Shown here in pieces: positions 1 to 45,866 of a DNA stretch of 64,000 bases (positions within the stretch are counted from its first letter, which is position 1; the number at the start of each line of letters is the position of its first letter). Under the pieces are notes generated by a model that made no database searches, had not been told where the DNA came from, and saw only the letters and a list, made by a program, of their open reading frames with translations. The DNA is from Candidatus Krumholzibacteriota bacterium (GTDB lineage: Bacteria > Krumholzibacteriota > Krumholzibacteriia > JAJRXK01): assembly GCA_963727455.1 (NCBI GenBank), contig CAVSGG010000010.1, forward strand, positions 1 to 64,000, written 5' to 3'. Position numbers and translations under genes: made by a program.

Positions 1-2
1 TC

Positions 3-1786: not shown

Positions 1787-1812
1787 AGCTAGGTGATTAC
1801 GCCGGGAGTGTT

Positions 1813-2787: not shown

Positions 2788-2793
2788 TCTAAA

Positions 2794-6742: not shown

Positions 6743-6807
6743 CATCTTTTGTGGATCCAAGATGCACACCGACTAGTTGGCAGTACTTAGCCGGTAATGG
6801 CCGCATG

Positions 6808-8745: not shown

Positions 8746-8747
8746 TA

Positions 8748-9908: not shown

Positions 9909-9985
9909 TTAGGGTTACTCCGGTAGCTAATTCGGAACGGTGAACCTAAGCGTAAGCGGAAATTGTGCACTTTGCGCTCCAAGAC

Positions 9986-11167: not shown

Positions 11168-11169
11168 TG

Positions 11170-13130: not shown

Positions 13131-13431
13131 TCTTAGTCTCCCATTCGGCCGAGCGCTGCGACAAAATGCTGACGTCCCACAATGTCAAAAAGTGAATTGC
13201 AGAGTTCTCCGCTCGCGAAACTGTACGTTACTATGGAGCTAAGCAAGTCGAGGCTCTGCACTAAGATACAGTAACCTATCACAGCTCCAATTGCTTAGAA
13301 AGTGACCAATTTGTGCTAGTCTCTGAGTACCTTGTGGATAGCGTTTCTGCACTGTAGACGAATCTGGAGGGTTGGTCCTATCCTAGCAGCTCCTCAGAAA
13401 TCTCGTTCATGCCCAAGGAGATGGCCCCGCA

Positions 13432-15333
13432 TTGCCTCCACAAGCCACCCGCATCCGCTACCGCGCCTGGCTGATCTGGTCCATCCTGGTGGCCTGTATC
13501 CTAACCGCCTACGCCGGCGCCTTCAGCCTCAAGCTGGGTCTGCCCCTTTCGAGCTGGGAGCCCTGGTTCGTCCGTGGCTTGCCCATCGTGGTGGCGATCA
13601 AGGTTCTCGCACTGGTCTTTTTTCGGGTGGATCGGGGCATGTGGCGCTATGCCGACGTGGGCGACCTCATCTCGACCGCCCTGGCCATCTTCAGCTCCAA
13701 CGCTCTTCTGATGGGCCTCACCCTGGCCTTTCAACTGCCCGTCTTCCTGCTCACCATCCTGGCCATCGACCTCTTGATCTCGCTACTGATCTTCTCCGGC
13801 GCGCGCATGAGCCTGAGGGTCTCCCAGGAGCTGCTCCAGGAATCCCGTTCCTCGCGCCGCACCGTGGTGATCGGGGCCGGCGACGCGGGCGAGGCCGCCG
13901 TCCGCGCCATCGCCCGCCAACCTCTGGCCGACCTGCGCCCGGTGGCCTTCGTCGACGACGATCCCCTGAAGCAGGGCCTGCACGTCCACGGAGTGCCGGT
14001 GGAGGGAACCATCGAGGAGCTTCCAGCAGTGGTCGAGCGGCTCCAGGCGGACAGCGTCCTCTTGGCCATCTGCCGCGATATCGGCCCGCGCCGTATGCGC
14101 GAGATCATGACCCTGGCCCGCTCCACGAAACTCCCGGTGAAGCGCATTCCGCCGCTGGACGAGCTGCTCAACGGCAGGGCGGTCATCGGCGATTGGCGAG
14201 AGTTCTCCATGGACGATCTGCTAAGCCGGGATCCCATCCTCACCGACCACGAGAGCGTGGCCGAGCTGCTCAGGGAGGAGACGGTGCTGGTAACTGGGGC
14301 GGCGGGTTCCATTGGAAGCGAGCTGTGCCGGCAGATTCTGGAGCAGCATCCCAAGCGCCTCATCCTCCTCGACCAGAACGAGAACGCGCTGTTTGAAATC
14401 GAGCACGAGCTTGCGGCACGTCACCCCATGTCGCGCTGCATCCCCGTGCTGGCCTCGGTGCGCGACGAGGCCAAGCTCGAATCCATCTTCGTCCGCTATC
14501 GCCCTTCGGTCGTCTTCCACGCCGCCGCCTACAAGCACGTGCCGGTGCTCGAACACTTCCCCGAAGAGGCGGTGCGCAACAACGTGAAGGGCACGCGCAA
14601 CGTGGCGCGCATGGCCGACCGTTTCCACTGCAAGAACTTCGTGTTCATCTCCACCGACAAAGCGGTACGTCCGACCAGCGTGATGGGTACCACCAAGCGC
14701 GTGGCCGAGCGCATCGTGGGAGACCTGGATCGGCAGAGCGAAACGCGCTTCACGGTGATTCGCTTCGGCAACGTGCTGGGGAGCAACGGCAGCGTTGTGC
14801 AGCTCTTCCGCAAGCAGATCGCCCAGGGCGGTCCGGTCACCGTTACCCATCCGGAGATCCGCCGCTATTTCATGAGCATTCCTGAGGCGGTGTCGCTCGT
14901 GCTGTGTGCCGCGGCCATGGACGAAGTGGGAGGCACCTACATTCTGGACATGGGCAAGCAGGTGCGGATCCTGGACATGGCGCGCCACTTCATTCGCCTG
15001 TGCGGCCTCGAGCCCGAGAAAGACATCGCCATCGAGATCGTGGGACTGAGGCCGGGAGAGAAGCTCTTCGAAGAACTCTGGACGGAGAGCGAGAATCCCC
15101 AGTCCACCGCGCACCCCAGCATTCTCTGCGCGCTGCGCGAGGAGAACTCCGATCCCAATCTCGGTGCAGAGGTGGACCGACTGATCAGCGCCGCCGAAGC
15201 GGGCAAACGCAACGAACTGATCCAGCTGCTGCATTCCCTGGTCCCGGCCTATAGCGGCAACCTGCTCGATGGAGAGTCCGTACCCGAACTCCGCGTGATC
15301 CCCGGCACGCGGAAGGACGTGGCAGGCGCCTGA
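13432..15333 (+). CDS. capD: Polysaccharide biosynthesis protein CapD/PglF (UDP-GlcNAc 4,6-dehydratase)
   Basis: 4 N-terminal TMs, GAGDAG, VTGAAGSIGSELCRQ, HAAAYKHVP, STDKAV, RFGNVLGSNGSV, GLRPGEKLFEEL. Confidence 0.92.
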   Translation: MPPQATRIRYRAWLIWSILVACILTAYAGAFSLKLGLPLSSWEPWFVRGLPIVVAIKVLALVFFRVDRGMWRYADVGDLISTALAIFSSNALLMGLTLAFQLPVFLLTILAIDLLISLLIFSGARMSLRVSQELLQESRSSRRTVVIGAGDAGEAAVRAIARQPLADLRPVAFVDDDPLKQGLHVHGVPVEGTIEELPAVVERLQADSVLLAICRDIGPRRMREIMTLARSTKLPVKRIPPLDELLNGRAVIGDWREFSMDDLLSRDPILTDHESVAELLREETVLVTGAAGSIGSELCRQILEQHPKRLILLDQNENALFEIEHELAARHPMSRCIPVLASVRDEAKLESIFVRYRPSVVFHAAAYKHVPVLEHFPEEAVRNNVKGTRNVARMADRFHCKNFVFISTDKAVRPTSVMGTTKRVAERIVGDLDRQSETRFTVIRFGNVLGSNGSVVQLFRKQIAQGGPVTVTHPEIRRYFMSIPEAVSLVLCAAAMDEVGGTYILDMGKQVRILDMARHFIRLCGLEPEKDIAIEIVGLRPGEKLFEELWTESENPQSTAHPSILCALREENSDPNLGAEVDRLISAAEAGKRNELIQLLHSLVPAYSGNLLDGESVPELRVIPGTRKDVAGA

Positions 15334-16520
15334 TGTTCAAGCGCACGGCCACAGTCTTGCTCTTCTTCTCGACCCTGCTCTTGGCAGTGGGCTTCCGCTA
15401 CGTTTTCTACGGAGAGATCTCGTCCACGGCCGCGCACTGGCTGGAACCGGCCCATCGACTCCTGTTTCTTTTGGCTCTGAGCGCCAACGCCGCGGCCTTC
15501 GGCCTGTGGAAAAAGCACGAGCCCTGGCCGCTCTTCGCGCTGAGCTGGATTCTCGTGCAGACCCTCCTTCTGGGCTGGCTCAGCCACCACCTGGCTCCCC
15601 ATCTCACCCCGGTCTACACCCTGCAGGCGGTGCTGGCCCTCGCGCTTCCCTGGCTCTTCGTGGAAACCAAGTACGAGCCCGGGGCGAGAATGCGGCTGGC
15701 CTTCCTCGTCGCGCTGCTTCCGCTTTTGAGCATGGTTTTTGGTGTGCTCCTCCAGTTGCTGCATCTCCATCGGGCCTACTCTGGGTACTTCGGCGGCATT
15801 TTTCGGCTGCAGGGAGCCACGAAAGCAGACTACTTCGCGGCCCTGGCCTTCGCGGGGGTGCTGGTGGCCCTTCACGAATGGGTGCGCACCCGCCGCTGGC
15901 CCATGGGCGCGCTGATCTTCCTGAATCTCATTCTCCTGGTCTTCAGCGGGGCTCGCATGGGTCTCTTCGCCGCCTTCGTGGGGGCGGTGGTGTACTTCTG
16001 GCGCTCAGCCGACGCGCGCAATGCCCTCTGGCGCCTGAAGGGCTGGGCCTATCTGGGAGCGGCCGCGGTGGGAGCGGCGATGGTCGTCTACGCGCCGATC
16101 ATGGTCGACCGCATGTACGGACTGGGGGGCGATCAGTTCAACTTCAGCGGTCGAAGGATCATCTGGGCCTCGTACCTGGACAAATTCGGCAAGAGCATCT
16201 GGTTCGGGCGCGGCCTGGGAGCGGGGCAGGAGGGAGTGTTCGATCCCAACTTTCCGCACAACGAGTACCTGCGCTTCGCGGTGGAGGGAGGCCTGGTGGG
16301 CGGGGTCATCCTGTTGCTCGCGATTTGCCTGTGGGCGTGGCGCATGCGCGAACACCTGGCCAGCAACGACCGCCCCTTCTTCACTGCGTTCATGGTGGCC
16401 ATCGCCATCTTCGCGATCACGGACAATCCGCTGAGCGCGACCTATCTCTCGGGCTTCGTATACTTGGGATTGCTCAGGAGCGAGGGCTGGGAAGCGCAGA
16501 AGCCGCCCCCGGAAAGCTAA
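15333..16520 (+). CDS. O-antigen ligase (Wzy_C) family protein
   Basis: Multi-TM; SGARMG, SGRRIIW, GRGLG, PHNEYLRFAVEGGLVG. Confidence 0.85.
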   Translation: MFKRTATVLLFFSTLLLAVGFRYVFYGEISSTAAHWLEPAHRLLFLLALSANAAAFGLWKKHEPWPLFALSWILVQTLLLGWLSHHLAPHLTPVYTLQAVLALALPWLFVETKYEPGARMRLAFLVALLPLLSMVFGVLLQLLHLHRAYSGYFGGIFRLQGATKADYFAALAFAGVLVALHEWVRTRRWPMGALIFLNLILLVFSGARMGLFAAFVGAVVYFWRSADARNALWRLKGWAYLGAAAVGAAMVVYAPIMVDRMYGLGGDQFNFSGRRIIWASYLDKFGKSIWFGRGLGAGQEGVFDPNFPHNEYLRFAVEGGLVGGVILLLAICLWAWRMREHLASNDRPFFTAFMVAIAIFAITDNPLSATYLSGFVYLGLLRSEGWEAQKPPPES

Positions 16521-17113
16521 CCGCGAAAGACGGCCTTCTGCAGAGTCTTGGCGATGACTCCCACGTCGCGCCGCGGTGAGCGGTGATTGATGTAGCTGCG
16601 GCTGAGCGCGAGCTTGCGCGGCAGAATCTTCTCGCGGTAGTAGCGCTCGGGGTCGAGTGCCTTCTCCAAGAGCGAACTCTCGTTGCGGAAGACGATGCTG
16701 GCGGGATCGGTCAGCCCCGGTCTCACGCTCAAGACTTCCAGTTGCAGAGCGTCCTGCAAACTCACGAACTTCGGAACCTCCGGACGCGGTCCCACCAAAC
16801 TCATCTCGCCGCGAAGCACGTTGAAAAGCTGGGGGATTTCATCGAGCTTCGTGCGCCGTAGAAGTCGGCCGACTTTGGTAACTCGCGGATCGCGATCTCC
16901 CAAGGTGCGGAGATACAACTCGCCGGTGGGATCGAGACGCATGGTGCGGAATTTCAGGATCTGGAAGATGTGACCGTGACGGCCAATCCGCTCCTGCGAA
17001 AAGAGCACAGGCCCGGACGACGAGAGCCTGACCGCCAACGCGATGAGAAGCCACAACGGGGCCCCGAGCAGCAAACCCAAAGCCGCGAAGATGACATCAA
17101 TGCTACGCGGCAT
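16517..17113 (-). CDS. Sugar transferase (PglC/WcaJ-type phosphoglycosyl transferase)
   Basis: KFRTM, DPRVTKVGRLLRRTKLDEIPQLFNVLRGEMSLVGPRPE, RPGLT. Start set at MPRSID. Confidence 0.9.
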   Translation of the reverse strand: MPRSIDVIFAALGLLLGAPLWLLIALAVRLSSSGPVLFSQERIGRHGHIFQILKFRTMRLDPTGELYLRTLGDRDPRVTKVGRLLRRTKLDEIPQLFNVLRGEMSLVGPRPEVPKFVSLQDALQLEVLSVRPGLTDPASIVFRNESSLLEKALDPERYYREKILPRKLALSRSYINHRSPRRDVGVIAKTLQKAVFRG

Positions 17114-21209: not shown

Positions 21210-22091
21210 GTGAACAAGGCTCTACCGGCCAAACTGCCTTTGAACCTGCATTTGCAGCACCTGGTCTACTTCCGTGAAGTGCAGCGCAAAGGCGGGATCA
21301 GCGAAGCGGCGCGCGCTCTGAACGTCAGCCAGCCCGCGCTCTCCCAGGCCCTCAGTGAGATGGAAAAGCGGCTCGGAGTTGCGCTCTTCGAGCGCGAGGG
21401 ACACAAGCGTCATCTCACGGTATCGGGCGAGGAGTTTCTACGCTTCGCCCGGGAGGTCCTCGAGAGGGCGGAGGAAGTGGAGCGTCGCCTGCAGGACCGC
21501 CGCCAGGGCAGAAGCGGAGTGTTGCGAGTGGGCATGATCGATGCGGCCAGTCTCTACGTGCTGCCCGCCACGATGCAGGCCTTTCGCGCCAAGCATGCCC
21601 AAGTGGACCTGGCCCTGACCGTGGCGCCGAGCGAGCAGCTTCTTTCCGCGCTGCGACACCACCGTCTCGATTTGGCTTTCGCGGTGGGACCACGGAGCGA
21701 TTCCGGGTTCAACGCGGTGCGCATCCGCCGTGAGCCGCTGCTCATCTACGCGCCTCCAGGGAGTCGCGGGAGAAAGCTGCAAGAGTGCGAGTGGATTCTC
21801 TATCCACCCAAGTCACGGACGCGCGCGGTGATCGACGCGGCTTTGAACGAGAAGGGAATCAAACCGCGCATCACTCTGGAGAGCGGTAGCCCGGAGGTTT
21901 TGCGTCAGCTCGTCTCCCTGGGTTTGGGCTATAGCGTGCTGCCCGAAGCGGTGGCCGAGGGCGCATCGCGCTCGCTGCGGCGCGTGTTCAAGACCCCTTT
22001 GGCCTACCGCGAGCTCCTGGCCTTCCGCCGCAAGAACGCCCCCTTCGATGCCCTGGCCGAGGAATTCACCGAAATGGCGCGCGGGGTCTGA
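21210..22091 (+). CDS. LysR-family transcriptional regulator
   Basis: HTH 'GISEAARALNVSQPALSQALSEMEKRLGVALFER', substrate-binding domain. Confidence 0.93.
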   Translation: MNKALPAKLPLNLHLQHLVYFREVQRKGGISEAARALNVSQPALSQALSEMEKRLGVALFEREGHKRHLTVSGEEFLRFAREVLERAEEVERRLQDRRQGRSGVLRVGMIDAASLYVLPATMQAFRAKHAQVDLALTVAPSEQLLSALRHHRLDLAFAVGPRSDSGFNAVRIRREPLLIYAPPGSRGRKLQECEWILYPPKSRTRAVIDAALNEKGIKPRITLESGSPEVLRQLVSLGLGYSVLPEAVAEGASRSLRRVFKTPLAYRELLAFRRKNAPFDALAEEFTEMARGV

Positions 22092-22134
22092 ATTTTCCTG
22101 CCCAAGGAACCCCGACAGGGGTAAAACTCTGCCG

Positions 22135-23208
22135 ATGATTCCCAGCGAGACAGTTTCTCGGTCGCAGCGCTCTTCGCTCAGGGCGGAGGGCGTCTTGCTG
22201 CTGCTTGTGATCTTGGCCGGGACGATCCTCCCCTGCGCGTCGCGCGCCGCAGGAAAGCCAGAGCCGTGGCGGCGCACTCTCGCGCTCAGCCCCGGGGAGT
22301 GGATCGGCTCCGGGCCGCGAGCGCAGCCCGCGCGCCAAACCGGGACCTCTGCTAGCAGTGACTCGGCATCTTTGCAGGAGAGCTGGAGCGAGCAGAGCGT
22401 GAGCCCGCCCGCGCAGCTCGGCCTTCCCCGCCAACTCCTGGTCGCCTCCACCTACCTGACGCTCTATGGGGTGGCCACGCACGTGGGAAGCCGGCGCCGC
22501 GTCGACGACAGCTTCAAGGTGGTGCGCCTGGAGAAGGCCTACGTCTACGACTTCGTGGGCCACACCTTCCTCGTGCGCGAAGTGGGAGGGATCGCCGCTG
22601 CTGTACAACACCTGGCGGGAGTCGAGAAAGGACAGGCCCGTACCCAGGGAGTATGGTGGGCCGAGTTCGGCAGCGAGATGTACATGGAGATTCTGAACGG
22701 CTGGGTGCACAACGTGCGCTTCGATCCCCTCGATCCCGTAGCCAACTTCACCGGGGCGATGCTGGCCACCAAGGGGCGAGACCTCGCGGCGCGCCACGAG
22801 TGGATCGACCGCTTCTCCTTGCAATTCGGCTACAAGGACTGGGGGCGCGCGTTTCGCCCCTCGAAGACTGACAACGCCACTTTGGCCAGCGTGTGGCACG
22901 ACCATGCCAACGGACGCTTCGGGTTGGGTTACGACATCGGACCGCTGAAACGGCCCTGGGTTTCGGTCTTCCTCAGCTACGAGATCACCAGCCTCGATAT
23001 CGAGCAACTGAAGAACCGTTTCGGCATGGGGATCGAGCTGCAGCCCATCTACTGGTTGGATCCTCTGATCCGCAAGCTTCCTTTGGGAAGGCAGTTCCTT
23101 CTTGCGCACGACTGGCTGAACCAACGAATCCTCCTGCCCGGTCTCTACATTCAGCTATTTCACGTGGATGCTCCGGCCTTCAGCAGCCAGGAACCCTTCC
23201 AGGAATAG
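22135..23208 (+). CDS. DUF2279/YfiM-like exported protein
   Basis: Signal-like segment; 'DFVGHTF' and 'EILNGW...FDPLDPVANFTG' resemble DUF2279 'DKxGH' and 'ExxDG...FSxxDxxANxxG'. Confidence 0.5.
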   Translation: MIPSETVSRSQRSSLRAEGVLLLLVILAGTILPCASRAAGKPEPWRRTLALSPGEWIGSGPRAQPARQTGTSASSDSASLQESWSEQSVSPPAQLGLPRQLLVASTYLTLYGVATHVGSRRRVDDSFKVVRLEKAYVYDFVGHTFLVREVGGIAAAVQHLAGVEKGQARTQGVWWAEFGSEMYMEILNGWVHNVRFDPLDPVANFTGAMLATKGRDLAARHEWIDRFSLQFGYKDWGRAFRPSKTDNATLASVWHDHANGRFGLGYDIGPLKRPWVSVFLSYEITSLDIEQLKNRFGMGIELQPIYWLDPLIRKLPLGRQFLLAHDWLNQRILLPGLYIQLFHVDAPAFSSQEPFQE

Positions 23209-23259: not shown

Positions 23260-23703
23260 ATGTTGATCGGCAGCATCGGTTGGCTGTCTCTGGGCAGCAT
23301 GCTCGTGGCGCAGCTCTTGAAGCCTTTCTTGAACGCGAAGGCCGAAGGCGTGCGCGCGATCGGACGCGTTCTCGATACCGGAGGCATGCCCAGCAGCCAC
23401 AGCGCCCTCGTCACCACTCTCACCCTGTGCATCTACTCGGTAGAGGGGGGAAGCTCCATTCTCTTCAGCATCTCTTTGATCTTCAGCTTGTATTTCATTT
23501 TCGAGGCGACCGGATTGCGCCAGGAAGTGGGAAGACAGGCCCAGGTGCTCAACGAGATGGTCGACGAGCTCCAGGAGACCCATCAGGTGGATCGCCGTCG
23601 CTTGAAGGAGCTGGTGGGGCACAGCTGGCAGGAAGTGCTCGGGGGCATCGTGGTGGGCATCGTGGTCTTCCTCTTGGGAAGGGGTTGGATCGCGGTCTCC
23701 TGA
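23260..23703 (+). CDS. Divergent PAP2 family protein (DUF212)
   Basis: TGGMPSSHSA, EATGLRQEVGRQAQVLN, LKELVGHS. Confidence 0.88.
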   Translation: MLIGSIGWLSLGSMLVAQLLKPFLNAKAEGVRAIGRVLDTGGMPSSHSALVTTLTLCIYSVEGGSSILFSISLIFSLYFIFEATGLRQEVGRQAQVLNEMVDELQETHQVDRRRLKELVGHSWQEVLGGIVVGIVVFLLGRGWIAVS

Positions 23704-23935: not shown

Positions 23936-25024
23936 ATGCGTATTCTCTCCGTCGCAAACCAGAAGGGTGGCGTAGGCAAGACGACCATCGCCGTCAACCT
24001 GGCCTCCGCGCTTGCCGGCTCCGGCAATAGCGTTCTTCTCATCGACAACGATCCTCAAGCGCACGCAACTCTGGCGCTGGGACTCGACCCATCGCAATTC
24101 GCGTTGAGCGCGCGCGAGCTCTATCTGAGCGAAGGGATCAAGGTGCAGGACGCGCGGATCACCGTGACGCCCGAGCTGTATCTGATTCCCGCGGACATCG
24201 ATTTGAGCACGGTGGAACAGGACCTCTCCGAGGCGCCGCGCAAGCTGCGGCGTTTGCTGGAGTGTCTGGCGACTTCGCACATGCCCTACGACTTCGTGCT
24301 GATCGACAATCCGCCGCAGGTCGGAATCCTCACCTTCAATGCGCTCTTGGCCAGCTCCGAGGTGCTGCTTCCGGTGGACGCGGGACGCTTTTCGGTGGAT
24401 GCGGTGGAGCGCTTCTCGGCCACCCTGCGGGGATTGAAGACCGAGCGTGGCCACGCCCCGCGTTTGCGCATCGTAGCCAGCGGTTTCGATCTGCGCACTC
24501 GCCACGCGCGGCGCATCCTGGAAGATCTCGAGGCATTGCAGCCGGGGTCCTTGGCGCGAACGGTCATTCGTTCCACCGTCAAGTTGCGCGAGGCAGCTCA
24601 GGCGGGAAGCCCCATCGATCGCTACGACCGTCACAGCCGCGCCACTGCGGACTTCGCGGCCCTGGCCGCGGAGCTCTTGGCCAGCGAATGGTCCCTCGAC
24701 CGTGAGGAACTCATGGAGTGGGAGGAACTGTTGCATGGCCCGCGCGCGAAGGCCGAGGGCGTGCTCTTCCACGGGTACTTTCCCCAGGCCGAGCGCGTCT
24801 GCGTCACCGGGGACTTCAACGACTGGTCGGTGGAGGGAGTCCAGCTCGCGCGACGCGGCGAGGGGCACTTCGAAGCGCAGCTACCGATCGCGCCGGGCTG
24901 TTACGAGTACAAGTTCATCGTGGACGGTGTTTGGACCGCCGATCCGGAAAATCCCGAACAGGTGCGCAATACCTACGGACAGGTGAACTCGGTACTGGTG
25001 GTTCCTTCGGGAGAGGCTCGATGA
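23936..25024 (+). CDS. ParA/Soj-family ATPase fused to C-terminal CBM48/AMPK-beta-like glycogen-binding domain
   Basis: NQKGGVGKTT, IDNDPQAHAT, VLIDNPP; C-terminal 'VCVTGDFNDWS...YEYKFIVDGVWTADPENP'. Confidence 0.88.
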   Translation: MRILSVANQKGGVGKTTIAVNLASALAGSGNSVLLIDNDPQAHATLALGLDPSQFALSARELYLSEGIKVQDARITVTPELYLIPADIDLSTVEQDLSEAPRKLRRLLECLATSHMPYDFVLIDNPPQVGILTFNALLASSEVLLPVDAGRFSVDAVERFSATLRGLKTERGHAPRLRIVASGFDLRTRHARRILEDLEALQPGSLARTVIRSTVKLREAAQAGSPIDRYDRHSRATADFAALAAELLASEWSLDREELMEWEELLHGPRAKAEGVLFHGYFPQAERVCVTGDFNDWSVEGVQLARRGEGHFEAQLPIAPGCYEYKFIVDGVWTADPENPEQVRNTYGQVNSVLVVPSGEAR

Positions 25025-25623
25025 GCCAGGAGCGACTGCACGCGGCGGCCGGGGAACGCTGGGAGCGCGTGGCCAGCAGCTTTCTGCGCCCGGCCCCGGC
25101 CCCGCGCTTCTCGGTAGCGGTGAGTGGGGCTGACGACGAACGAAGAGTGCAGCGGATTGCCCGGGAAGTGCGCGAAGGATTGGGGGAGCTGGTACAGGGC
25201 CCTGGCGGGGGCGACGGACGGGTGGAGGTGAGAGACTTGGGAGCGGTGAACGAGAGAAGGCTCGAGCGCCTGGCCGCAGAGCGATTCGCTGCGCCGGATC
25301 TGCTGCTGTGGAGCATGAGCCCCAAGACCGCGTCGAGCCAGCGCTCGTTCTATCTTCTGGGGACCTTCGTGTGGACCCAGACCCCCAAGAGCGTCGCGTG
25401 TGTGCTGGAGAGAGGCAGCCTTCCCGCTGCGCTCTTCGAAGCGGGACGGAACGCGATTCGGGCAGCTTCGGGAGTGCAGTGTCCGCTCGATCTGTACCTT
25501 CTGCAGGGGGCGGTGGAGGAGGGTCGCAGCTGCACCCTGGGCGGGATTCTTCAGGCCGCTCTGGCGCGGGCGGATGCTCGCGCGCGGAGCGGCGCAGCCA
25601 GGAGGGAGCTTTTCTCGGCGTGA
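25021..25623 (+). CDS. Hypothetical protein translationally coupled to ParA-CBM48
   Basis: ATGA overlap with the upstream stop; SD-like GGAGAGG; 200 aa with no recognised motif. Confidence 0.6.
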   Translation: MSQERLHAAAGERWERVASSFLRPAPAPRFSVAVSGADDERRVQRIAREVREGLGELVQGPGGGDGRVEVRDLGAVNERRLERLAAERFAAPDLLLWSMSPKTASSQRSFYLLGTFVWTQTPKSVACVLERGSLPAALFEAGRNAIRAASGVQCPLDLYLLQGAVEEGRSCTLGGILQAALARADARARSGAARRELFSA

Positions 25624-25684: not shown

Positions 25685-27451
25685 ATGAATGCGGCACCAC
25701 TGGCTCCCTACTTCAACTTCGTGAGGCGCCACCGTTGGTCCTATCTGGCGGCGTTGCTCGTCTCCATTTTGGGAACCGCGATCTACCTCCTCACCACGCC
25801 CACGCTCTACCGTGCCGCGGCGCGCACCATCGTGCCCTACCGCGAAGTGGAGTCCGATCTTCGTTTTGGCAACGGGCGGCCCTTCCCGGTGCAGTACGTC
25901 TTCGTGGTCAACAATCACCTGGAAGTTTTGCGGAGCGGATCGGTGCACCGCGCCATCTTAGAGGCGATCAAGCGCGAGGATCCCGAACTTCTGCAGGAGT
26001 TGCGCGAACTCGCCAGGGGCCGGAGCAAAGATGAGGATGAGGCCCTGCTCATGGCTCTCGATGACCGGCTGCGCGCGAGCTCTCGCGACAAGACCGGAGT
26101 GCTCAGGCTGGAGGCAACCGCTTCTACCGCCGCGAGCGCGGCGCGCTTGGCCAACTTGGCCCTGCACACCTACGCCACGGTTCAGGACAGTCTGAACCGT
26201 AGCTCGACGGTGGAGTGGTTGGGAAATCTGCGCGCAGAAGAGGCCAAGTGGCACAAGATCTTGGAGCAGAGAAACGACGAGCTGCAGACCTTTCGCAGCA
26301 AGCAGCAAGTGATGGATCTCGTGGAAGAGGGGCGCGCGGTAGTGCGGGAGATCATCCGCCTGCGAGCGGAAGCGTCGATGAACGACGCCGAACTCTCCGG
26401 ACAAAAGGGGCGACTCACGGAACGCGAAGCGCAGCTCGGAAAAGTCTATGCGCGTTTGCAGGAAAGCTTGCGCAGCGATCCGGCTTCGGTGGCAGACGCC
26501 CTGCGCAAACAGTTGTCGCTCGACCGCGCCCGGCTTCAGTACCTGCTCGCGGCGGGAGCTGCGGAGGATGCCTCCCAGGTGCAGAGCCTGCGCCAACGCA
26601 TCGATCGCGCGGCCCAAGTGCTGCAGGACGAGGGGGAGAAGCTGCCCAAGGATCCCTCCTTGGAAGGGGACCCAGTAAAACTGGCGGAGAAGCTGCTCAC
26701 CGCGATCCACGACTTCCAGCCCGATATCCTGGGCCGGCAGGCGCAGGTCGATCGTCTCGACGTAGCCGTCGATTCGCTGCAGGCGCGCATGGTGGTCATT
26801 CCCGCGTTGGCCGCGGCGGAAGCGCGCTATGAGCGCGAAGCCAAGATGGCCAAGGAGACCTACGAGCTGGTGCAACAGCGCATGGTGGAGGCGGAGATGC
26901 TGGCTCAGAAGCACGACAGCCGCCTGCAGACCATTCATCCCGCCGAAATTCCTTCACGTCCATCCTCACCCCGAAGGCTCTTGGCCATGGTGGGCGCGCT
27001 GTTTATCACAGTGCTCCTGGGCAGCGTGGCCGGCATGGTGGTGGAGGGCGTCGATCCCACCGTGCGCGACGCCGACGAGGCGATGCGGCTGAGTGAGCTC
27101 GCGGTGTTGAGCCGTCCCGCAGCGGAGGGCGGCAGTGTCTCCCCGGAGCTCGCCGTGGTGGCGGCCGCGCAGGGCCTGGCCGGCAAGCCGGGCGTGCTCT
27201 GGCTGGTGGGCGTCGATGGAGAGGACGTCTCCGATCTGAAAACCAGGGTCAGCGGGCGTCTGGCCGCATTGCGTTCGGAGGTGCAGGTGGCCGGGGGCAG
27301 CTTCGAGGAGTTCTTCAGCGCCTCGAGCTCATCGCCCACCCTCGTGCTGCTCGTGGCGCGCCGGGGCCGGACGCGGCGCGCGAGTTTGAAGGACGCGGCG
27401 CGCCTGCTGCAGGGCACGGGACACCCTGCCGGGGGACTTTTGGTCCGGTGA
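25685..27451 (+). CDS. GumC/Wzc-like co-polymerase with degenerate C-terminal kinase-like remnant
   Basis: TM, long coiled coil, 'IHPAEIPSRPSSP', TM, then a short tail 'VLLVARRGRTRRASLKDAARLL...GGLLV' without Walker A or Tyr cluster. Confidence 0.8.
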   Translation: MNAAPLAPYFNFVRRHRWSYLAALLVSILGTAIYLLTTPTLYRAAARTIVPYREVESDLRFGNGRPFPVQYVFVVNNHLEVLRSGSVHRAILEAIKREDPELLQELRELARGRSKDEDEALLMALDDRLRASSRDKTGVLRLEATASTAASAARLANLALHTYATVQDSLNRSSTVEWLGNLRAEEAKWHKILEQRNDELQTFRSKQQVMDLVEEGRAVVREIIRLRAEASMNDAELSGQKGRLTEREAQLGKVYARLQESLRSDPASVADALRKQLSLDRARLQYLLAAGAAEDASQVQSLRQRIDRAAQVLQDEGEKLPKDPSLEGDPVKLAEKLLTAIHDFQPDILGRQAQVDRLDVAVDSLQARMVVIPALAAAEARYEREAKMAKETYELVQQRMVEAEMLAQKHDSRLQTIHPAEIPSRPSSPRRLLAMVGALFITVLLGSVAGMVVEGVDPTVRDADEAMRLSELAVLSRPAAEGGSVSPELAVVAAAQGLAGKPGVLWLVGVDGEDVSDLKTRVSGRLAALRSEVQVAGGSFEEFFSASSSSPTLVLLVARRGRTRRASLKDAARLLQGTGHPAGGLLVR

Positions 27452-28839
27452 GGGAAATGCCGCGGCGCCACGCGACCTCTTGGGCCGACACTCTGCTCAC
27501 TCTCACTCTCTTCCTTTTGCCCTGGATCGGGGTCGGCTTCTTCCAGCTCCTGACCGGGCGATCGCTCTCCACCGGAGTGCAACCCGCGCTGTTGAGCGGT
27601 GGCTTGGCCCTTCTCTTTCTGCCCTTCGTGGGGTGGCGCGGATTCGATCGCGAAGGAGAGCGCTGGCTGGCGCTTCTTTTGTGGATCGTTCTGGGCACGG
27701 CGGCGCTGTGGCAACTGGAGGACATGGGACTGCAGGGGGAGGTACCCTGGCTCAAGGCACTCAAGCAATGCGTGCAGATTGTGTACTTCTTCGCCCTGGC
27801 TCTTCTTCCCACGGTACTGCTCGCGCGCAGTAACAACGGCGCGCGCACGCTCGCGCGTTGGGAGCGAGCGGCGAGCCTGGGCCTTCTCAGCGCCTCCCTG
27901 GTGGGACTCTATCTCGCCCTGGCCTTTTACGTGGAAGTTCCAGGCGGGCACCGTCTGTTGGACCTTCTGTCCTCCAATCGCTCCATCGCCTCGGGCAGCG
28001 ACGAGCTCTATCTAGGTCACAGCTTTGTGGGAATTCCCCGAGTGCGCTCGGGAGCGGCCGAGCCTCTGTACTTCGGCAGCTACCTCTTGTGCGTGTTGCC
28101 GATGACCGCGGTAGGCATGGTGGCCGCTAGGGGATGGGCGCGGCTGTGGCGCGCGTTCGCTTTGGTCTTGGGACTGGCCTGCATGCTCTTGACCTTCAGC
28201 CGCGGAGTGTACTTGGGATTGACCCTGTTGCTCGTCTTGACCGCCACGGGAATGGCCCGCGGAATTCTGCCCCGGCCTACCAAACGGACGGGGATTCCCC
28301 TGGCCTTGCTGCTGCTCGTGGGCACCCTCGCACTCAGCGCGCTCTTCACCAGCGGGAGCATTCTCGCGCTGCCGCAACTCTTTGTTGCGCGGATGGAGCA
28401 GTCCTTTGCCCAGCACGATCTCTCGAATCTGACACGCTTGAGTTCCTGGCGCGCCGCGGGGATTCTCTTCTGGCATCACCCGCTCTTCGGCGTGGGATGG
28501 AGCGGATTCGGTTTTTGGTTCTACCGCGTCCTGGGAAGCTCGGGCTCAGCGGCAGTCTTCGGCTGGCCCGTCACCAACAACTTCCCCTTGCGGGTCTTGG
28601 CGGAGACCGGATTGGTGGGCGCGGTCCTTTGGGGAAGCGCCCTGGTTCGGCCCCTTTCTCCTCTGCGTGGTGCATTCTTCGGCCGGCGCGCGCGAGTGAG
28701 TGGGGCTTCTTTCGTGCTGGCCTCTTGCCTCGCGGCCCTACTTTTGCAGATGTTGACATTCAGCCAGATGAACTTGCCCCATCTCTGGCTGACCGGCGGC
28801 ATGGCGGCGGCGCTGGCGCGCTGGGACGGTGTGGCTTGA
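27448..28839 (+). CDS. O-antigen ligase family protein
   Basis: RVRSGAAEPLYFG, LTFSRG, RLSSW, HPLFGVGW, NNFPLRVLAETGLVG. Confidence 0.85.
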   Translation: MREMPRRHATSWADTLLTLTLFLLPWIGVGFFQLLTGRSLSTGVQPALLSGGLALLFLPFVGWRGFDREGERWLALLLWIVLGTAALWQLEDMGLQGEVPWLKALKQCVQIVYFFALALLPTVLLARSNNGARTLARWERAASLGLLSASLVGLYLALAFYVEVPGGHRLLDLLSSNRSIASGSDELYLGHSFVGIPRVRSGAAEPLYFGSYLLCVLPMTAVGMVAARGWARLWRAFALVLGLACMLLTFSRGVYLGLTLLLVLTATGMARGILPRPTKRTGIPLALLLLVGTLALSALFTSGSILALPQLFVARMEQSFAQHDLSNLTRLSSWRAAGILFWHHPLFGVGWSGFGFWFYRVLGSSGSAAVFGWPVTNNFPLRVLAETGLVGAVLWGSALVRPLSPLRGAFFGRRARVSGASFVLASCLAALLLQMLTFSQMNLPHLWLTGGMAAALARWDGVA

Positions 28840-28840
28840 G

Positions 28841-30001
28841 ATGAGAAGAATTCTCATTCCTGCCCTCCAAGTAGGTCCCGGCCAGACCGGAGTCGGCGTC
28901 TACACGCTGGAGTTGATTCGCGCGCTGAGCGAGATGCCGTTGCGCGACGAGGAGTTCTTCGTCGCGGCGGTTCATCCGCGCGAATTCGAGTTTTTGCGCG
29001 GGATTGAAGGTTTCTTCGTGGAGCCAATTCAACTCTTGCGCGAAAACTCATGGGGACGCATGATGGCGACCCACACCACGGTCCCGCGTCTCGCGGAGAA
29101 GCTGGGTGTGGATTTGGTGATGGGAGTGAACTTCATCGCGCCACTGTGGGGGCGTTTCGCGACCTCGGTGCTGGTGCACGATCTCACCTTCCATCACTAC
29201 CCCCAGACGATGCCGCGGGGGAAACGCCTGTACTACCAGTTCGTGGTACGGCGATCCATCCGCCGATCGAAGCTCGTCTTCGTGACGACACAGACGATGG
29301 CGCGTGAACTCGTAGAATACGAGCCGAGCGCCATGGGAAAAATCAGGATCGCTCCCGGAGGAGTTCCATCAGCCTACCTGGTTAACGGCGAGGAAGAGAA
29401 AACAGAACGTAGCCAGCGCTTGCGTCAGCCGCGCTCGAACTTTCTCTTCGTCGGCACATTGGAACCTCGGAAGAATCTGGAGCGGTTGCTCATGGCGCAC
29501 GCTGCGCTATGTCGCTTCGATCCCGATTTTCCCGCGCTTCGAGTCGTCGGGGGCCGCGGGTGGGAGGATGCCGGTATCCGCCGGACGATCCTGGACCATC
29601 CCGATCCTTCCCGACTCGAAATTTTGGGCTACTGCGGTCCGGAAGAACTCCTGAGGGAGTACGACCGGGCCTTGGCGCTGCTGTTTCCTTCGCTGTATGA
29701 GGGCTTCGGCCTTCCGGCGTTGGAGGCGATGGCCAGGGGGTGCCCCGTGCTGACCTCGAAGGGGATCGCCACGGCGGAAGTAACCGGGGATGCCGCACTG
29801 CTCGTCGATCCTCTCCAATCGGGAGAGTTGGAACGGGCTATGCGTCGCCTGGCCGACGATTCGAGTTTGCGCGACCGTCTGGCGGCCGCGGGCTCGGATC
29901 GGGCCCGCTCATTCACGTGGGAGCGCGGGGCTGTGAAGACTCTGGAGGCGCTTCGCGAGCCGGATCTCATTCCGTCTCGGGGAGACCAGGTAGGCCATTG
30001 A
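28841..30001 (+). CDS. Glycosyltransferase family 4 (mannosyltransferase-like)
   Basis: TGVGVY, VHDL, VGTLEPRKNL, FPSLYEGFGLPALEAMARG. Confidence 0.9.
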   Translation: MRRILIPALQVGPGQTGVGVYTLELIRALSEMPLRDEEFFVAAVHPREFEFLRGIEGFFVEPIQLLRENSWGRMMATHTTVPRLAEKLGVDLVMGVNFIAPLWGRFATSVLVHDLTFHHYPQTMPRGKRLYYQFVVRRSIRRSKLVFVTTQTMARELVEYEPSAMGKIRIAPGGVPSAYLVNGEEEKTERSQRLRQPRSNFLFVGTLEPRKNLERLLMAHAALCRFDPDFPALRVVGGRGWEDAGIRRTILDHPDPSRLEILGYCGPEELLREYDRALALLFPSLYEGFGLPALEAMARGCPVLTSKGIATAEVTGDAALLVDPLQSGELERAMRRLADDSSLRDRLAAAGSDRARSFTWERGAVKTLEALREPDLIPSRGDQVGH

Positions 30002-31263
30002 TGATCTCGATCCCGCACTTCCTGGCGTTGATCGCCGCCTGTGCCCTTCTCACTCATCTTTTGATGCCCTTGGTTCGACGTCTGGGAATGAGCCTGGGGC
30101 TGGTCGACCATCCGTCCTGGCGGCGCTCCCAGCGAGAAGCGGTGCCCTGTAGCGGCGGACTGGCAATCTACGCGTCAGTCGTGCTCACTGCTCTGGCGCT
30201 CGCGCTCCTGGTCGACCTGCCGTTCTCGGGCCATTCCTTCGCCGCTTTGGGCCTGGCGGGCCTGGGGACCCTGGTCTTGGGGGTTCTGGACGACCGCGTG
30301 GGCCTGCACGCCGAAAAGAAGCTCTTGGGACAGGTCGCGGTCGTGATGCTCCCCATGGCTTCCGGCTTGACCCTGCACCAGATCAGCCTTCCCGGTCTGG
30401 GAACTGTGGAATTGGGTCTTCTGGGGGGACCGATCACCCTCTTTTGGTATCTCGGCTTCATCAACAGCATGAATCTCATCGATGGACTGGACGGGCTCGC
30501 GAGCGGAATCGGAGTCATCGTGCTCGCCGGGATGGGTATGGCGCTGTACCCCGGGGATCCGGTGGGGATGCTCTTCGTGGGTGCGCTTTTGGGAGGAGTG
30601 CTGGGTTTCTTGCGCTCCAACCTCTCACGCTCGCGCATTTTTCTCGGTGACGCGGGTTCGATGCTCTTAGGGCTCTGGCTGGCCGGCCTTGCCATCGGGC
30701 TGAGCAAGTCCACCCCGACTCTTCCTCTGACCGCGGTGATCGCGATGGCAGTGCCCATCCTCGACACCACCACCACGATCTTTCGTCGGCGCCGGCGCGG
30801 AGTGAGTATCTTCCGGGCCGATGACGAACACCTTCACCACCGTCTCTTGCGCTTGGGAATGAGCCCGCGCCGCGCTACCACTGCGCTGTGGTTCGCATCG
30901 GTGGCCTTCGCCTCCTTGGCCCTCGTGGTGGACGGAAGCGCAAATGGGTCGATCCTGGCTCTGGCAGCACTGGCGGCGACGGCGGTTCAGGTCGCGTATA
31001 CTCTACCGCGCACAGGGCGGCCCACCGCCAAAGAGGCGATCGGGTATCTGCTGGGCGCGCGGGAGTATCTGGTTTCGGAGGTCAGCCGCAGGCAGTTGGC
31101 CGAGATCATCGAGATGCCCCGGTACTCGCAACAGGCCTGGCCGCGTCCCACAGAGGCGAAGAGTGAAAAGCTCGCCACCGCCGAGCTCTTGGCGGCGGAA
31201 GCGAAAGAGGGGGGAGGGTCACGCGACGATGTCGTTCTGGCCCTTGGCGAGGAGAATCACTGA
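30001..31263 (+). CDS. wecA: Undecaprenyl-phosphate GlcNAc-1-phosphate transferase (WecA/TagO, MraY family)
   Basis: GVLDD, NSMNLIDGLDGLA, IFLGDAGS, ADDEHLHHRL. Confidence 0.88.
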   Translation: MISIPHFLALIAACALLTHLLMPLVRRLGMSLGLVDHPSWRRSQREAVPCSGGLAIYASVVLTALALALLVDLPFSGHSFAALGLAGLGTLVLGVLDDRVGLHAEKKLLGQVAVVMLPMASGLTLHQISLPGLGTVELGLLGGPITLFWYLGFINSMNLIDGLDGLASGIGVIVLAGMGMALYPGDPVGMLFVGALLGGVLGFLRSNLSRSRIFLGDAGSMLLGLWLAGLAIGLSKSTPTLPLTAVIAMAVPILDTTTTIFRRRRRGVSIFRADDEHLHHRLLRLGMSPRRATTALWFASVAFASLALVVDGSANGSILALAALAATAVQVAYTLPRTGRPTAKEAIGYLLGAREYLVSEVSRRQLAEIIEMPRYSQQAWPRPTEAKSEKLATAELLAAEAKEGGGSRDDVVLALGEENH

Positions 31264-33185: not shown

Positions 33186-33520
33186 GCGAGGGCATCCGAG
33201 CGATCCACAGCTATTGCTAATCGTTGTTTCATAACAGCTTAGCATCGTAGCCTCTTGACCCGCGGCGCGGGCTTGGGGTAGAATCTGACCACGATCTCGT
33301 TGGGTTCGCAACTCGTGAAGAAGACTCTGGCTCCTCCTCGTTTTCTCCCCTTCAGTCGGATCTCCGACTCGAGTTCGCATGTGTTGTGGACTCAGCGGGA
33401 GAATCTGGTTTCTTCGCGCAATACGGGCCCTTCGAGCCGGGCTCATTCGTTCTGTTCCATGCGACTCTTGCCTCTTCGCTTTCGCCATGCCGCGAAGAGC
33501 TGCATCTCAGGAGGAAGAAC

Positions 33521-36500
33521 ATGAACCCAGTCCACCGGGTTTCATTCCGTCTTTCCGCATTGCTTTTCGTCCTAGCTTGCATCGGCGCATTCAACGAAGC
33601 GTCGGCTGCGGCAATCGATCTGCCCGTCGGATTCGATGCGGCGAAATTGCAACTCGTCGAGTCTCCCGACGGCTTGATCTACTCGTTAGCGGGGATGGAA
33701 AACCTCAAGGCGACCGGAGCCCCCGCTCTGCCCTACGCGAGCTGGAAGGTAGTGCTTCCCCAGGGCAAGACCCTCGTGGAAGTCGAGGTCCAGGACGCGC
33801 GCTGGAAACGCTTGAACCCTGGCGGGCAACTGGCGCGCGCGCGGAAGCTCATGAGCGATCAAGGAAATGCGGTGAGCGTGAGCATGGGGGGGCTGCGCGA
33901 GGATTTCCAAGACGGAGGCACTTTCCCCGCGGCTGCGGCACGGGGTCAGGGTTTTTCCGTCATGGAAGGCTATCGTCTGGCCAAGGTGGACGTGTTTCCG
34001 CTGCGCGTGCTCTCGGATGGAACGGTGGAAATCCTGACGCGCGGACAGCTTCATTTGGTGCTGGCCGATCAGGCCATGGATGACGTGGCCCAACGCCAGA
34101 TAGCGTGGCCCGGCGTGGCCGAGCGCGCGGCGCAACGAGTGCGCAGGCTCGTGGTCAATCCGGAGCAAGTCGATTACTGCGCGCCCCCGGCGGGAATTGC
34201 TCCCGAGCTCTTGAAGTCCTCTTCCAACAAGGCGCCCTCGCCACTCGATGAGGATGAAGTCTTCGCAGGTGGACGCGTGGACTACGTCATCATCACCATT
34301 CCCTCTCTGGTCTCTCAGTTCCAGAGATTGGCGGACGATCACATCGCTCACGGACTTCGCAGCAAGGTCGTCACCACGGATTGGATTCTCGCGAACTACC
34401 GGCATGGAGTGGATCTGCAGGAAACGATTCGTTTTTTCCTCAAAGAGGCGTACGCGAAGTGGGGCCTGCACTACGTACTCTTGGGCGGTGACGCGGGAAT
34501 TCTGCCGCCGCGCTACGTGCGTAGCACTTTCTATCCTCCCGGAGGACACACCGACATTCCCGCCGATCTCTACTTCGGCGCACTCGACGGTAACTGGAAC
34601 GGCAACGGCAACGGCATTTTCGGCGAGGCCTTTCAGTCCTTCGCCGATCCCGGAGACAATCAAGACATGGTCGCCGAAGTGGTGGTGGGACGCGCACCGG
34701 TGAACGACCTGGGCGAAGCCACCACTTTCGTGGACAAGTGCCTCGAGTACGAGACTCCGACCAATGGTTCCTATCTGGGTAAGGCGTTGTTTCTGAGCGA
34801 GGTGCTCTTTCCCTCGGACTGGGATGGCTCTTCTCCCATCAACCTCGATGGAGCGTCCTACAGCGAAGACATCATTTTCAATTCGCTGATCACTCCGGGA
34901 AACCTCATCGACAGCGAGCGCCTGTACGAAAATTACACCGCCTATCCCTATACCCTTCAAGAGACCCAACAGGCCTCGCTCGATTCCATGACGACCGGCC
35001 ACTTCGGGCTGGTGAATCACGTGGGCCACGGGTTCTACTACAACATGAGCGTGGGGAATGCGAACATCTTCGTCAGCGACGCGCTGGCCCTCACGAACGC
35101 ACCCAATTATTTCGTGATGAACGCTCTGAATTGTTCCTCCGGGGCCTTCGATTTCGACTGTCTCCTGGAGACCTACATTCAGGATCCCGATGGGGGCAGC
35201 GTGGCGAGCTTGGGTGCATCACGCGAGGCATTTCCCACCACCGCGAACGCCTACCAGCAGGAGTTCTTCCACCAGATCTTCGTGTTGGGGAACACGAGCT
35301 TGGGTGACGCGATGGATGCGGCCCGGAACGCCAACATACCGGGGCAGTTCAACTCGGAGAGTTTCGAACGCTGGACGCACTTCTGCTACACCTTGCTCGG
35401 CGATCCCGCTCTGCGGATGTGGCGTAAGGCTCCGGTCACTCCCGTGGTGAGCAAGCCCAGTTCGGTTCCTCTTGGCACCCAGCAGATCACGGTGGGCGTG
35501 ACCTCCTCGGGTCTTGCCGTGCCGGCGGCGCGCGTGACCATGCACAAACCGGGTGAAGCCTGGGCGACCGGGGTGACCGATACGCTCACCGGCCAGGTCA
35601 CCCTCGATTTGCAGCCCCTGAGCCAGGGTACGATCGACGTGGTGGTGGATGGAGCGAGCCTCCAGCCTCAGATCCAGACGATCACGGTGGGACCGGCGGC
35701 TCAGGCCAACATCGTGGGCAGTCCGCTGAGTGTGGATGATGGGGTCGCAGGAAACGACTTGGCCGATTCGGGCGAGTCGGTGGATTGGTACTTCCACTTC
35801 GAGAACAACGGGGACGGCAGTTTGGCCAGCGGAGTGAGCGCCGTGTTGCGACCGGTGGACGCGAGCGGCGCCACGGTGACGGACTCGACGATCACGGTGG
35901 GAGACCTTGCCGGGAGCGCGAGTGCCGATCCCAACGATCCGGTCAGCATCGATCTGAGTCCCTCCATCGCGGATGGCACCACCCTCAGTTTCGATCTGGT
36001 AAGTAGTTCCGGAGGGGACACCTGGACGCAGCGAGTCTATCTGAGCGTGATTGCTCCGGAGCCGCAAGTCGTGCGGGTTTTCACCGACGACTCCGTGACT
36101 GGAAACGGTGACGGGATCCAGCAACCCGGTGAGATCCTGGAGATGCATGTCGAGGTGAAGAACTACGGCGCCGGTGCGCTCGTGGGGGCCACTGGCATGC
36201 TGAGTTCCTCCTCTCCCAACGTCTCGATCACGCAGGCGAATGCCAGTTGGGCCGATCTGGGAGTGAAGGCCAGTGGTTACGGCAGTGGCTACTTTCAGGT
36301 GGCCGAGAGCGACACGAGCCTAGAGAACTGGATGTATCTACTCTTAACGGATGCCAAGGGGCATTCCTGGGAACGGTGGCTGGAATTGCGCGAGCCGGAT
36401 CCGCCCACCGGCGTGGTGCCGTTCACCAATCTGGGTCCCACGACCATTGCCTTGCAGTGGGAGCCTTCCACTTCGCCGCACCTCATGGGCTATCGCGTCT

Positions 36501-38341: not shown

Positions 38342-38423
38342 CCAAGTTGGTCGAATCGTGGGGGGATGCGGGGGCCCGTCCCGCGCGCAGCGGGACAGGC
38401 CCCACCCACGTTCGAGGTCCTGC

Positions 38424-43187: not shown

Positions 43188-43256
43188 GAGGGCTCGGTCC
43201 ATTTGACACTTTGCCTCTGTCGAGTTTTCGTTGCGCGCAACAGAGGAGAGAACGCC

Positions 43257-45866
<2,610 letters not shown>

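Follow-up and report, generated by a model that had tools for sequence, protein, structure and literature searches.

A ParA/Soj-type ATPase fused to a CBM48 domain, and the gene coupled to it, in Krumholzibacteriota

The window analysed here, positions 1 to 64,000 of contig CAVSGG010000010.1 from a Candidatus Krumholzibacteriota bacterium (GenBank assembly GCA_963727455.1), contains a gene in which a ParA/Soj-type ATPase is joined through a linker to a C-terminal carbohydrate-binding module of family 48 (CBM48). A second gene, here termed open reading frame 2 (ORF2), overlaps its stop codon. The ATPase is Soj-like and, by its motifs, intact; the CBM probably still binds a sugar, which need not be a glycogen granule of the cell's own making; and the fusion is a large, multi-phylum family. 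The likeliest role of the pair, for the source organism and at a probability of roughly 0.35, would be that of an ATP-switched tether between α-glucan and nucleoid, reset by ORF2.

ParA/MinD ATPases are the general means by which bacteria position large objects in the cell. Glycogen is among the commonest of storage bodies, and we know of no dedicated positioning system for it. If the tether exists, a ParA protein with its own glucan-binding module and a cognate activator would make glycogen positioning open to simple biochemistry and imaging.

The fusion protein and its family

The longest frame of the fusion gene opens upstream, at GTG 23765; the start was set at ATG 23936, which matches the starts of orthologues and has GAGGAG 8 nt upstream. 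An initial annotation of the window had described a deviant Walker A motif, a DPQ switch, Soj-like basic motifs, and a CBM48 domain, and all are present as quoted: KGGVGKTT; DNDPQ; FDLRTR and TVIRSTVKLREAA; and GDFNDW...YEYKFIVDGVW..DPENP. The two Pfam domains that it proposed are both matched, AAA_31 at 4.7e-42 (residues 1-170) and AMPK1_CBM (PF16561) at 3e-14 (residues 284-357; 53.4 bits against a cut-off of 26.8). Pfam also finds CbiA (9.4e-19), CBP_BcsQ (4.5e-13), and, at the C-terminus, CBM_48 (PF02922; 3e-8; 34.3 bits against 22.4).

The closest solved structures to the ATPase are those of ParA/Soj: 8RAY (1.5e-32, residues 2-249), 1WCV (7.9e-29), 6IUB (1.5e-26), and 2BEK. KGGVGKTT occupies residues 10-17, and both the signature lysine and the DxDPQ switch motif are intact. 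Eleven residues are invariant across 24 diverse relatives: K10, G11, G12, K15, T17, D37, D39, P40, Q41, D124, and R187. R187 is the arginine of the DxR motif, and K216 aligns with the arginine of NVRLSE in 8RAY; the equivalent residues presumably have a role in Soj. From these two positions, ATP-dependent, non-specific DNA binding is predicted for the fusion.

The ATPase is 38-43% identical to the chromosomal ParA type, and scores 102.7 bits with the NCBIfam model ParA_partition, under the equivalog cut-off of 180. The gene that follows has no ParB domain in Pfam or NCBIfam. The genome's only ParB_N match lies on contig C1, alongside a canonical chromosomal ParA, and none lies on contig C10, from which the window comes; the fusion is therefore an extra, orphan ParA, and the annotation was right to see no parB in the window.

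Two other identities were tried and rejected. For a bacterial tyrosine kinase (BY-kinase), TIGR01007 gives 34.8 (cut-off 108) and TIGR03018 gives 23.9 (cut-off 230.65), and there is no C-terminal tyrosine cluster, the C-terminus being the CBM. For BcsQ, the equivalog TIGR03371 gives 74.4 (cut-off 157.85). (The Pfam model CBP_BcsQ is above its cut-off, as are other ParA-family models, and no window gene scanned against Pfam matches a cellulose-synthase family.)

The CBM aligns to that of AMPK β1 (1Z0M/4YEF) at 1e-9. Four sugar-contact positions are identical, W297, K326, W333, and N351 of the fusion; the fifth, equivalent to L146, is Tyr. (We take the AMPK β1 contacts to be W100, K126, W133, L146, and N150, a numbering that agrees with the chain index of the alignment.) W297, W333, and N351 are invariant in the 24 relatives and the lysine position holds K or R; the contacts are conserved in Myxococcota sequences as well. 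Mean pairwise identity among these relatives is 0.50 for the CBM and 0.48 for the ATPase, so that the two domains are equally conserved. For the linker it is 0.22, and linker length differs, with insertions in some relatives.

A stand-alone AMPK1_CBM protein was also found, in three Omnitrophota loci that have no fusion (L155, L165, and L169), directly 5' of a GS2-like glycosyltransferase and a glycoside hydrolase family 57 (GH57) branching enzyme. This subtype of CBM therefore travels with glycogen genes even without ParA.

Of the 120 best relatives listed, about 360 residues long, only P0036 is without PF16561; 1982 proteins reach E 1e-3 or better among 8000 scored. Species-representative genomes searched with the CBM half, together with loci collected earlier, gave a set of 88 loci, and in 72 of these (69 distinct) ParA and CBM share a single ORF. 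(A locus search by patterns drawn from the alignment of relatives had given mostly ordinary ParA genes, because Walker-A patterns were chosen.) The joining of ParA and CBM is thus not a chance juxtaposition, since the CBM recurs in nearly all best relatives, and in one ORF at most loci fetched. By record title, fusion loci span Krumholzibacteriota, Zixibacteria, Omnitrophota, Eisenbacteria, Myxococcota, Desulfobacterales, Nitrospirota, Acidobacteriota, Methylomirabilota, Spirochaetales, Planctomycetota, and Gammaproteobacteria. Among sampled genomes, a full-length fusion occurs in 89 of 121 from the window's phylum, in all nine families, and in 25 of 151 from Myxococcota.

The ParA-CBM architecture is already in print and is not new. 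In its accessible passages, a bioRxiv preprint of 22 October 2026 (10.64898/2026.10.19.760177) describes a "CBM-containing system" consisting of ParA with a C-terminal AMPK1_CBM; assigns it to an immunity-associated branch, ConB5, sporadic across phyla; and reports one variant that adds an inactive restriction endonuclease (REase) and another ParA, itself inactive and rapidly evolving. The same passages propose a role as immune sensor, partly from a CBM said to diverge rapidly. Among the papers listed by literature searches, nothing else was relevant to ParA with CBM48 or to ParA-type glycogen positioning.

The downstream partner

The initial annotation's coupled partner is a real gene whose position is conserved: ORF2 stands directly 3' of the fusion in 7/7 Krumholzibacteriota-labelled loci, and its hidden Markov model (HMM) matches only such loci. 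ORF2 matches nothing in Pfam or NCBIfam. Five Krumholzibacteriota loci are syntenic over the whole neighbourhood, and in these ORF2 identities are 81, 57, 39, 38, and 41% against ATPase identities of 94, 87, 68, 69, and 59%. ORF2 is thus fast-evolving, at 38-41% identity where the ATPase retains 59-69%. Searches reach few relatives: a profile search of 1.84 billion representatives found 29 ORF2 clusters only; a word-index search found only 5 close relatives; and an HMM of six ORF2 orthologues had no match in loci L006-L092.

An AlphaFold2 (AF2) model of ORF2 (predicted local distance difference test, pLDDT, 74.8; predicted template-modelling score, pTM, 0.72) has a P-loop-NTPase-like α/β fold without the P-loop, and its N-terminal helix is of low confidence. 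Foldseek/VIA comparisons with this model give generic P-loop GTPase or flavodoxin-like matches (Arl13B, template-modelling score 0.49; Rag and Arf, Z 11-11.7; CpaE N-domain, Z 11.0) and do not single out ParA/MinD. A complex prediction with two ParA domains (residues 1-265), ATP, and ORF2 scored 0.07 (mark 0.32).

Outside the phylum, the first gene after the fusion begins with a conserved peptide: LGRGLEDISHLFLS in partners from Zixibacteria, Omnitrophota, Desulfobacterales, Nitrospirota, Acidobacteriota, and Planctomycetota; LPRDLGDVLHYFLP in those from Myxococcota; and LARISARFLSD in those from Gammaproteobacteria. A regular expression for this motif, written after the sequences were seen, matches the ORF just downstream of the fusion at 48 of the 69 distinct loci, and elsewhere 2 of 1919 ORFs (first 140 residues). 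At least six more loci show the motif on inspection by eye, and at three loci the sequence runs out within 600 nt of the fusion. A motif-bearing partner is present in 17 of 18 further loci from the window's phylum, the exception being L178. A similar peptide is seen at the N-terminus of the ParB encoded in this genome, MAKRVLGKGLSALIG (LGKGLSALI). The N-terminus of ParB is its ParA-activating end.

The partners match Pfam CbiA/ParA from just past the Walker A position (of ten tested, two scored above cut-off, two below, and six not at all). Behind the peptide, then, the partner is, to judge by its sequence, a catalytically degenerate ParA/MinD-like domain.

Does ORF2 belong to this partner family? 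Within the phylum the motif forms a graded series: in families f2-f4 and f6-f9 it reads RLRDISHLYLS, SLRDVSHLFLS, or HIRDIAHLYIS; in family f5, HHIDEIAHHFL or HRFDAVAEAFLP; and in family f1, to which the window belongs, ERWERVASSFLRP. In profile comparisons by hhalign, f5 partners are linked with canonical partners at probability 95.4 (E 2e-8), and the ORF2 family with f5 partners at probability 80.5 (E 1.3e-5). Compared directly, the ORF2 family gave no link, either to canonical in-phylum partners (2.1) or to those of other phyla (probability 0.2). These comparisons place ORF2 in the partner family with moderate confidence, as a diverged and shortened form linked to it only transitively.

In about 30 loci the partner is followed by a third gene of about 200 codons (for example, L122, 10055..10717), with the motif IDLVAVD..G..VLV; its cluster holds 34 members, at least three of them partner frames. 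It has no Pfam match, and matches candidate defence families PDC-S11 and PDC-S18 weakly (best 4.7e-7). In the preprint it is called an inactive REase. It does not follow ORF2 in the window, where the gap to the next gene is 61 nt, and its cluster is without Krumholzibacteriota loci. In two Omnitrophota loci, L014 (334..930, 2012..2344) and L016 (6532..7104, 8229..8540), a small membrane protein replaces the inactive ParA after the fusion; upstream of the fusion, both carry a conserved ORF of 190-198 residues opening DEIYxHLAKVYL.

Possible roles: glycogen tether, envelope organiser, or sensor

As a tether, the pair would work as follows. ATP-driven dimerisation would present two CBM48s together with the ParA DNA-binding face; the dimer would hold cytoplasmic α-glucan (glycogen, in the source organism) on the nucleoid; and the N-terminal helix of ORF2 would trigger hydrolysis and release. 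Glycogen particles would thereby be spread or shared out, not clumped.

Genomic context supports a glycogen link in part. The source genome encodes GlgA, three GH57 proteins, and a phosphorylase within about 10 kb on contig C4. In a genome of the same class, G029, ParA-CBM48 heads a same-strand run (locus L178) that continues with a CBM-only protein, two synthases like glycosyltransferase families 4 and 5 (GT4/GT5), a GH57 branching enzyme with BE_C, and a DUF3417-phosphorylase; the 690-nt gap after this fusion holds no motif-bearing partner ORF. A GH57 branching enzyme lies 4-7 kb 3' of the fusion in two Omnitrophota loci. In the window's phylum, GlgA as scored by PF08323 is present in 78 of the 89 sampled genomes that carry the fusion and in 17 of the 32 that do not, an association overstated because the compared genomes are related. 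GlgA is also present in 4/4 fusion-bearing genomes of four other phyla, and is common in any case.

Beyond that inflation by relatedness, several observations count against the tether. In Myxococcota the association is reversed: PF08323 is found in 4 of 25 fusion-bearing genomes and 108 of 126 without the fusion (threshold 1e-20, counts read from listings). Four fusion-bearing genomes, G249, G174, G219, and G274, have no GlgA (even at 1e-3), GH13 GlgB, or phosphorylase, and two of them carry weak, partial GH57 matches only; of the five GlgA-less Myxococcota genomes checked (of 21), only G204 has GlgB and phosphorylase. Within the window's phylum, five family-f8 genomes (86-96% complete) carry the fusion without GlgA, GH57, GlgB, or phosphorylase, their GH13 branching-enzyme matches being confined to the CBM region. 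The partner also fits poorly. It is the partner that is located on the cargo in classical ParA systems, yet the one here has no domain for binding sugar and, in genus g2, is joined to a two-pass membrane protein.

The initial annotation named regular occurrence in genomes lacking glycogen synthesis as the observation that should tell against its proposal, and this is what Myxococcota, and in part family f8, display. The glycogen link is thus partly supported: it holds in the source organism, with its glycogen genes, and not in every lineage, 21 of the 25 fusion-bearing Myxococcota being without PF08323.

A separate observation concerns G079, one of the five family-f8 genomes without recognisable glycogen enzymes, where CBM48 occurs on a 680-residue protein and on small proteins in which Pfam finds nothing else. 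One of these is followed by a 165-residue fragment like the G029 synthase, possibly the remnant of a decayed glycogen cluster.

The genes around the pair suggest a different role. ORF2 is followed on the same strand by genes for a polysaccharide co-polymerase (PCP), a Wzy_C protein, a GT4 enzyme, a WecA-type transferase, and, fifth, a methyltransferase (Table 1), and in this lineage the pair might organise envelope polysaccharide: at the inner membrane, with the Wzy-type genes, it would position or gate the assembly machine, in the manner of BcsQ with cellulose synthase, or replace the tyrosine-kinase ATPase that the PCP lacks. The PCP (TIGR03007 7.4e-17, TIGR03017 5.9e-15, both under cut-offs) runs about 110 residues past its second hydrophobic span without a Walker motif, and no tyrosine kinase is encoded at the locus. 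In three g2 genomes (G100, G068, and G016) a single protein joins the ORF2 domain to a module in which two hydrophobic spans, read by eye, flank about 130 residues; G042 encodes this module as a separate gene before Wzy_C, a place taken by a PCP in genera g1 and g4. The PAP2-like membrane protein DUF212 is a conserved neighbour, lying immediately 5' of the fusion in 15 of the 20 in-phylum loci, which represent nine families and include L189-L204. The Pfam match to CBP_BcsQ and the second Wzx/Wzy-type cluster of the window are further points in its favour.

Against an organiser stands its narrow range. Wzy_C, GT4, and WecA follow the pair in 6 of 20 further in-phylum loci, all from families f1 and f5; the PCP follows in 1 of 20, and after ORF2 only in part of f1. 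Beside fusions outside these two families or outside the phylum, the search found no homologue of PCP, Wzy, GT4, or WecA, nor was DUF212 found beside fusions of other phyla. Since polysaccharide genes adjoin the fusion only in f1 and f5, the adjacency is secondary. Moreover, the ATPase resembles Soj and not a BY-kinase, and falls short of the BcsQ equivalog; the two-pass module has no similarity to the window PCP; and the known ligands of CBM48 are α-glucans, not Wzy-pathway intermediates. The envelope link is therefore real but lineage-specific, and the connection with adjacent polysaccharide export machinery drawn by the initial annotation stands to that extent, through synteny in f1 and f5 and the membrane-fused partner. 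(No Wza-type exporter was seen.) As an account of the pair, an organiser is unlikely.

Table 1. Coordinates of the fusion, its partner, and neighbouring or related features. Rows give window positions unless a locus is named.
Feature	Coordinates	Strand	Evidence and remarks
DUF212 (divergent PAP2) membrane protein	23260..23703	+	PF02681 1.4e-34
ParA-CBM48 fusion ORF	23936..25024	+	362 aa, opening MRILSVANQKGGVGKTT
ParA/Soj-type ATPase domain, residues 1-255	23936..24700	+	AAA_31 4.7e-42; ParA/Soj structures
Linker, residues 256-283	24701..24784	+	Variable in sequence and length
AMPK-β-type CBM48, residues 284-357	24785..25006	+	Pfam; whole-genome scan gives the same coordinates
ORF2, 200 aa, translationally coupled	25021..25623	+	ATG inside ATGA overlap with the fusion stop
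PCP/Wzz-like polysaccharide co-polymerase, no kinase domain	25685..27451	+	GNVR and Wzz below Pfam cut-offs
Wzy_C (O-antigen ligase/polymerase-like) membrane protein	27448..28839	+	PF04932 8.7e-14; syntenic in f1 and f5
GT4 glycosyltransferase	28829..30001	+	Glycos_transf_1 2.9e-24; syntenic in f1 and f5
WecA/MraY-type initiating transferase	30001..31263	+	PF00953 1.8e-31; syntenic in f1 and f5; start uncertain, frame opens at 29740
Second cluster: Polysacc_synt, Wzx-like flippase	2794..4284		
Second cluster: Polysacc_synt_2, CapD-like dehydratase	13432..15333		
Second cluster: Wzy_C	15333..16520		
Same-strand run headed by ParA-CBM48, G029 (same class)	L178 (G029:C33) 6193..15131		
CBM48 proteins of G079	L186 (G079:C1) 4964..7871; L187 7866..8764		

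The window has further features. A 386-residue ORF with no Pfam match (22048..23208) keeps its position, between a LysR regulator and DUF212, in family f1 only. The second Wzx/Wzy-type cluster (1..17000) also holds three GT4 genes, an asparagine synthase (AsnB), and a DegT aminotransferase; G+C is 0.51-0.54 over the first 12 kb of the window and 0.61-0.66 elsewhere, and the cluster, typical of a variable O-antigen/exopolysaccharide block, was possibly acquired. Further downstream lie two tandem proteins of about 1600 residues (33386..38341 and 38358..43187), each with Peptidase_C25 (gingipain-like), FG-GAP repeats, and a C-terminal FlgD_ig domain, followed by ClpB (43203..45866).

As unlikely as the envelope organiser is a glycan-sensing switch without cargo, in which CBM48 would report glucan or maltodextrin status, as in AMPK, and bias the ParA ATP/DNA cycle, with nucleoid occupancy or partner activity as the output. 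The CBM contacts are conserved even in the Myxococcota clade that mostly has no GlgA, which points to a ligand that need not be a self-made glycogen granule; the linker is flexible and variable; and the inactive ParA and, in many lineages, the inactive nuclease-fold protein (so described in the accessible passages of 10.64898/2026.10.19.760177) look regulatory or DNA-directed, not cargo-binding. The window's pair, however, includes no regulator or DNA-binding domain and suggests no nameable output, and the occasional place at the head of a glycogen operon, as in G029, equally fits direct action on glycogen.

Elements of these readings can be combined. An ancestral ParA-CBM48 switch may have been rewired here, losing its inactive-ParA and nuclease-fold partners and gaining a membrane-tethered one at a Wzx/Wzy locus; glycogen status would then gate envelope polymerisation through the ParA ATP cycle, in place of the PCP's absent tyrosine-kinase ATPase. 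Such a history is improbable.

The immune sensor proposed in the accessible passages of 10.64898/2026.10.19.760177, whose CBM would detect an infection-linked carbohydrate change and whose ParA would multimerise on DNA to contain a phage or selfish element, draws on the ConB5 placement, the inactive-ParA/REase variant, the defence-family matches of the third gene, and the fast evolution of ORF2, and is very improbable for this gene. Its occurrence throughout the nine families at a conserved position after DUF212, and synteny over 20-26 Myxococcota loci with genes for an extracytoplasmic function (ECF) sigma factor, DsbA, a phosphoglucomutase-type protein, and a methyltransferase, form the pattern of a vertically inherited housekeeping gene, not of a defence island. 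The CBM is not fast-evolving in the sample of 24 relatives; PADLOC gives only a P-loop match for the fusion, and none for ORF2 or the partners; and no effector is present.

The α-glucan tether retains the highest probability. The family thrives in clades without recognisable glycogen genes and is vertically conserved, so that glycogen positioning and immune sensing are both incomplete accounts of it.

Comparison with known systems

ParABS (Soj/Spo0J) supplies the closest ATPase by sequence, and shares the signature lysine, the DxR arginine, and a partner with an activator-like peptide resembling the genome's own ParB N-terminus. The window pair differs in having no ParB fold, CTPase domain, or parS, and its ATPase carries an extra CBM48.

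McdA/McdB, PpfA, and ParC likewise pair an orphan ATPase of the ParA family with a partner that is small, fast-evolving, and encoded just downstream. In the fusion, however, the cargo-binding module would be on the ATPase rather than the partner. McdA structures match residues 1-162 of the fusion only, at 3e-11, far more weakly than Soj; to our knowledge, McdA lacks the signature lysine that the fusion has.

MinD/MinE is similar in logic only: a C-terminal surface-binding element gains avidity on ATP dimerisation, and a partner peptide triggers hydrolysis. The surface element of the fusion is a CBM48 and not an amphipathic membrane helix, and MinD models score well under their cut-offs (TIGR01968, 40.2 against 212.9).

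BcsQ and the BY-kinase/PCP pairs are ParA/MinD-fold ATPases serving envelope-polysaccharide machines, and a kinase-less PCP follows the window pair. The fusion nonetheless falls below their equivalog models and has no tyrosine cluster, and the PCP link is confined to part of one family.

AMPK β contains a CBM48 of the same Pfam family with identical W/K/W/N contacts. There the module is part of a kinase scaffold, whereas in the fusion it is carried by a ParA ATPase, with Tyr at the L146 equivalent.

Closest of all is the ConB5 ParA-CBM of the preprint (10.64898/2026.10.19.760177), judged by its accessible passages: ParA with C-terminal AMPK1_CBM, present in several phyla, and in one variant accompanied by inactive-ParA and nuclease-fold partners, which were found independently here. 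Those passages do not include the ParB-like N-terminal peptide of the partner. The family is clade-wide and syntenic in the clades sampled here, rather than sporadic, and its CBM is not fast-evolving. In the window the partner is a 200-residue, shortened form, tied only transitively to the inactive ParA; there is no REase gene; and the locus runs on into PCP, Wzy, GT4, and WecA. The window thus adds a variant to the ParA-CBM family, in which the partner is tied to envelope-polysaccharide genes.

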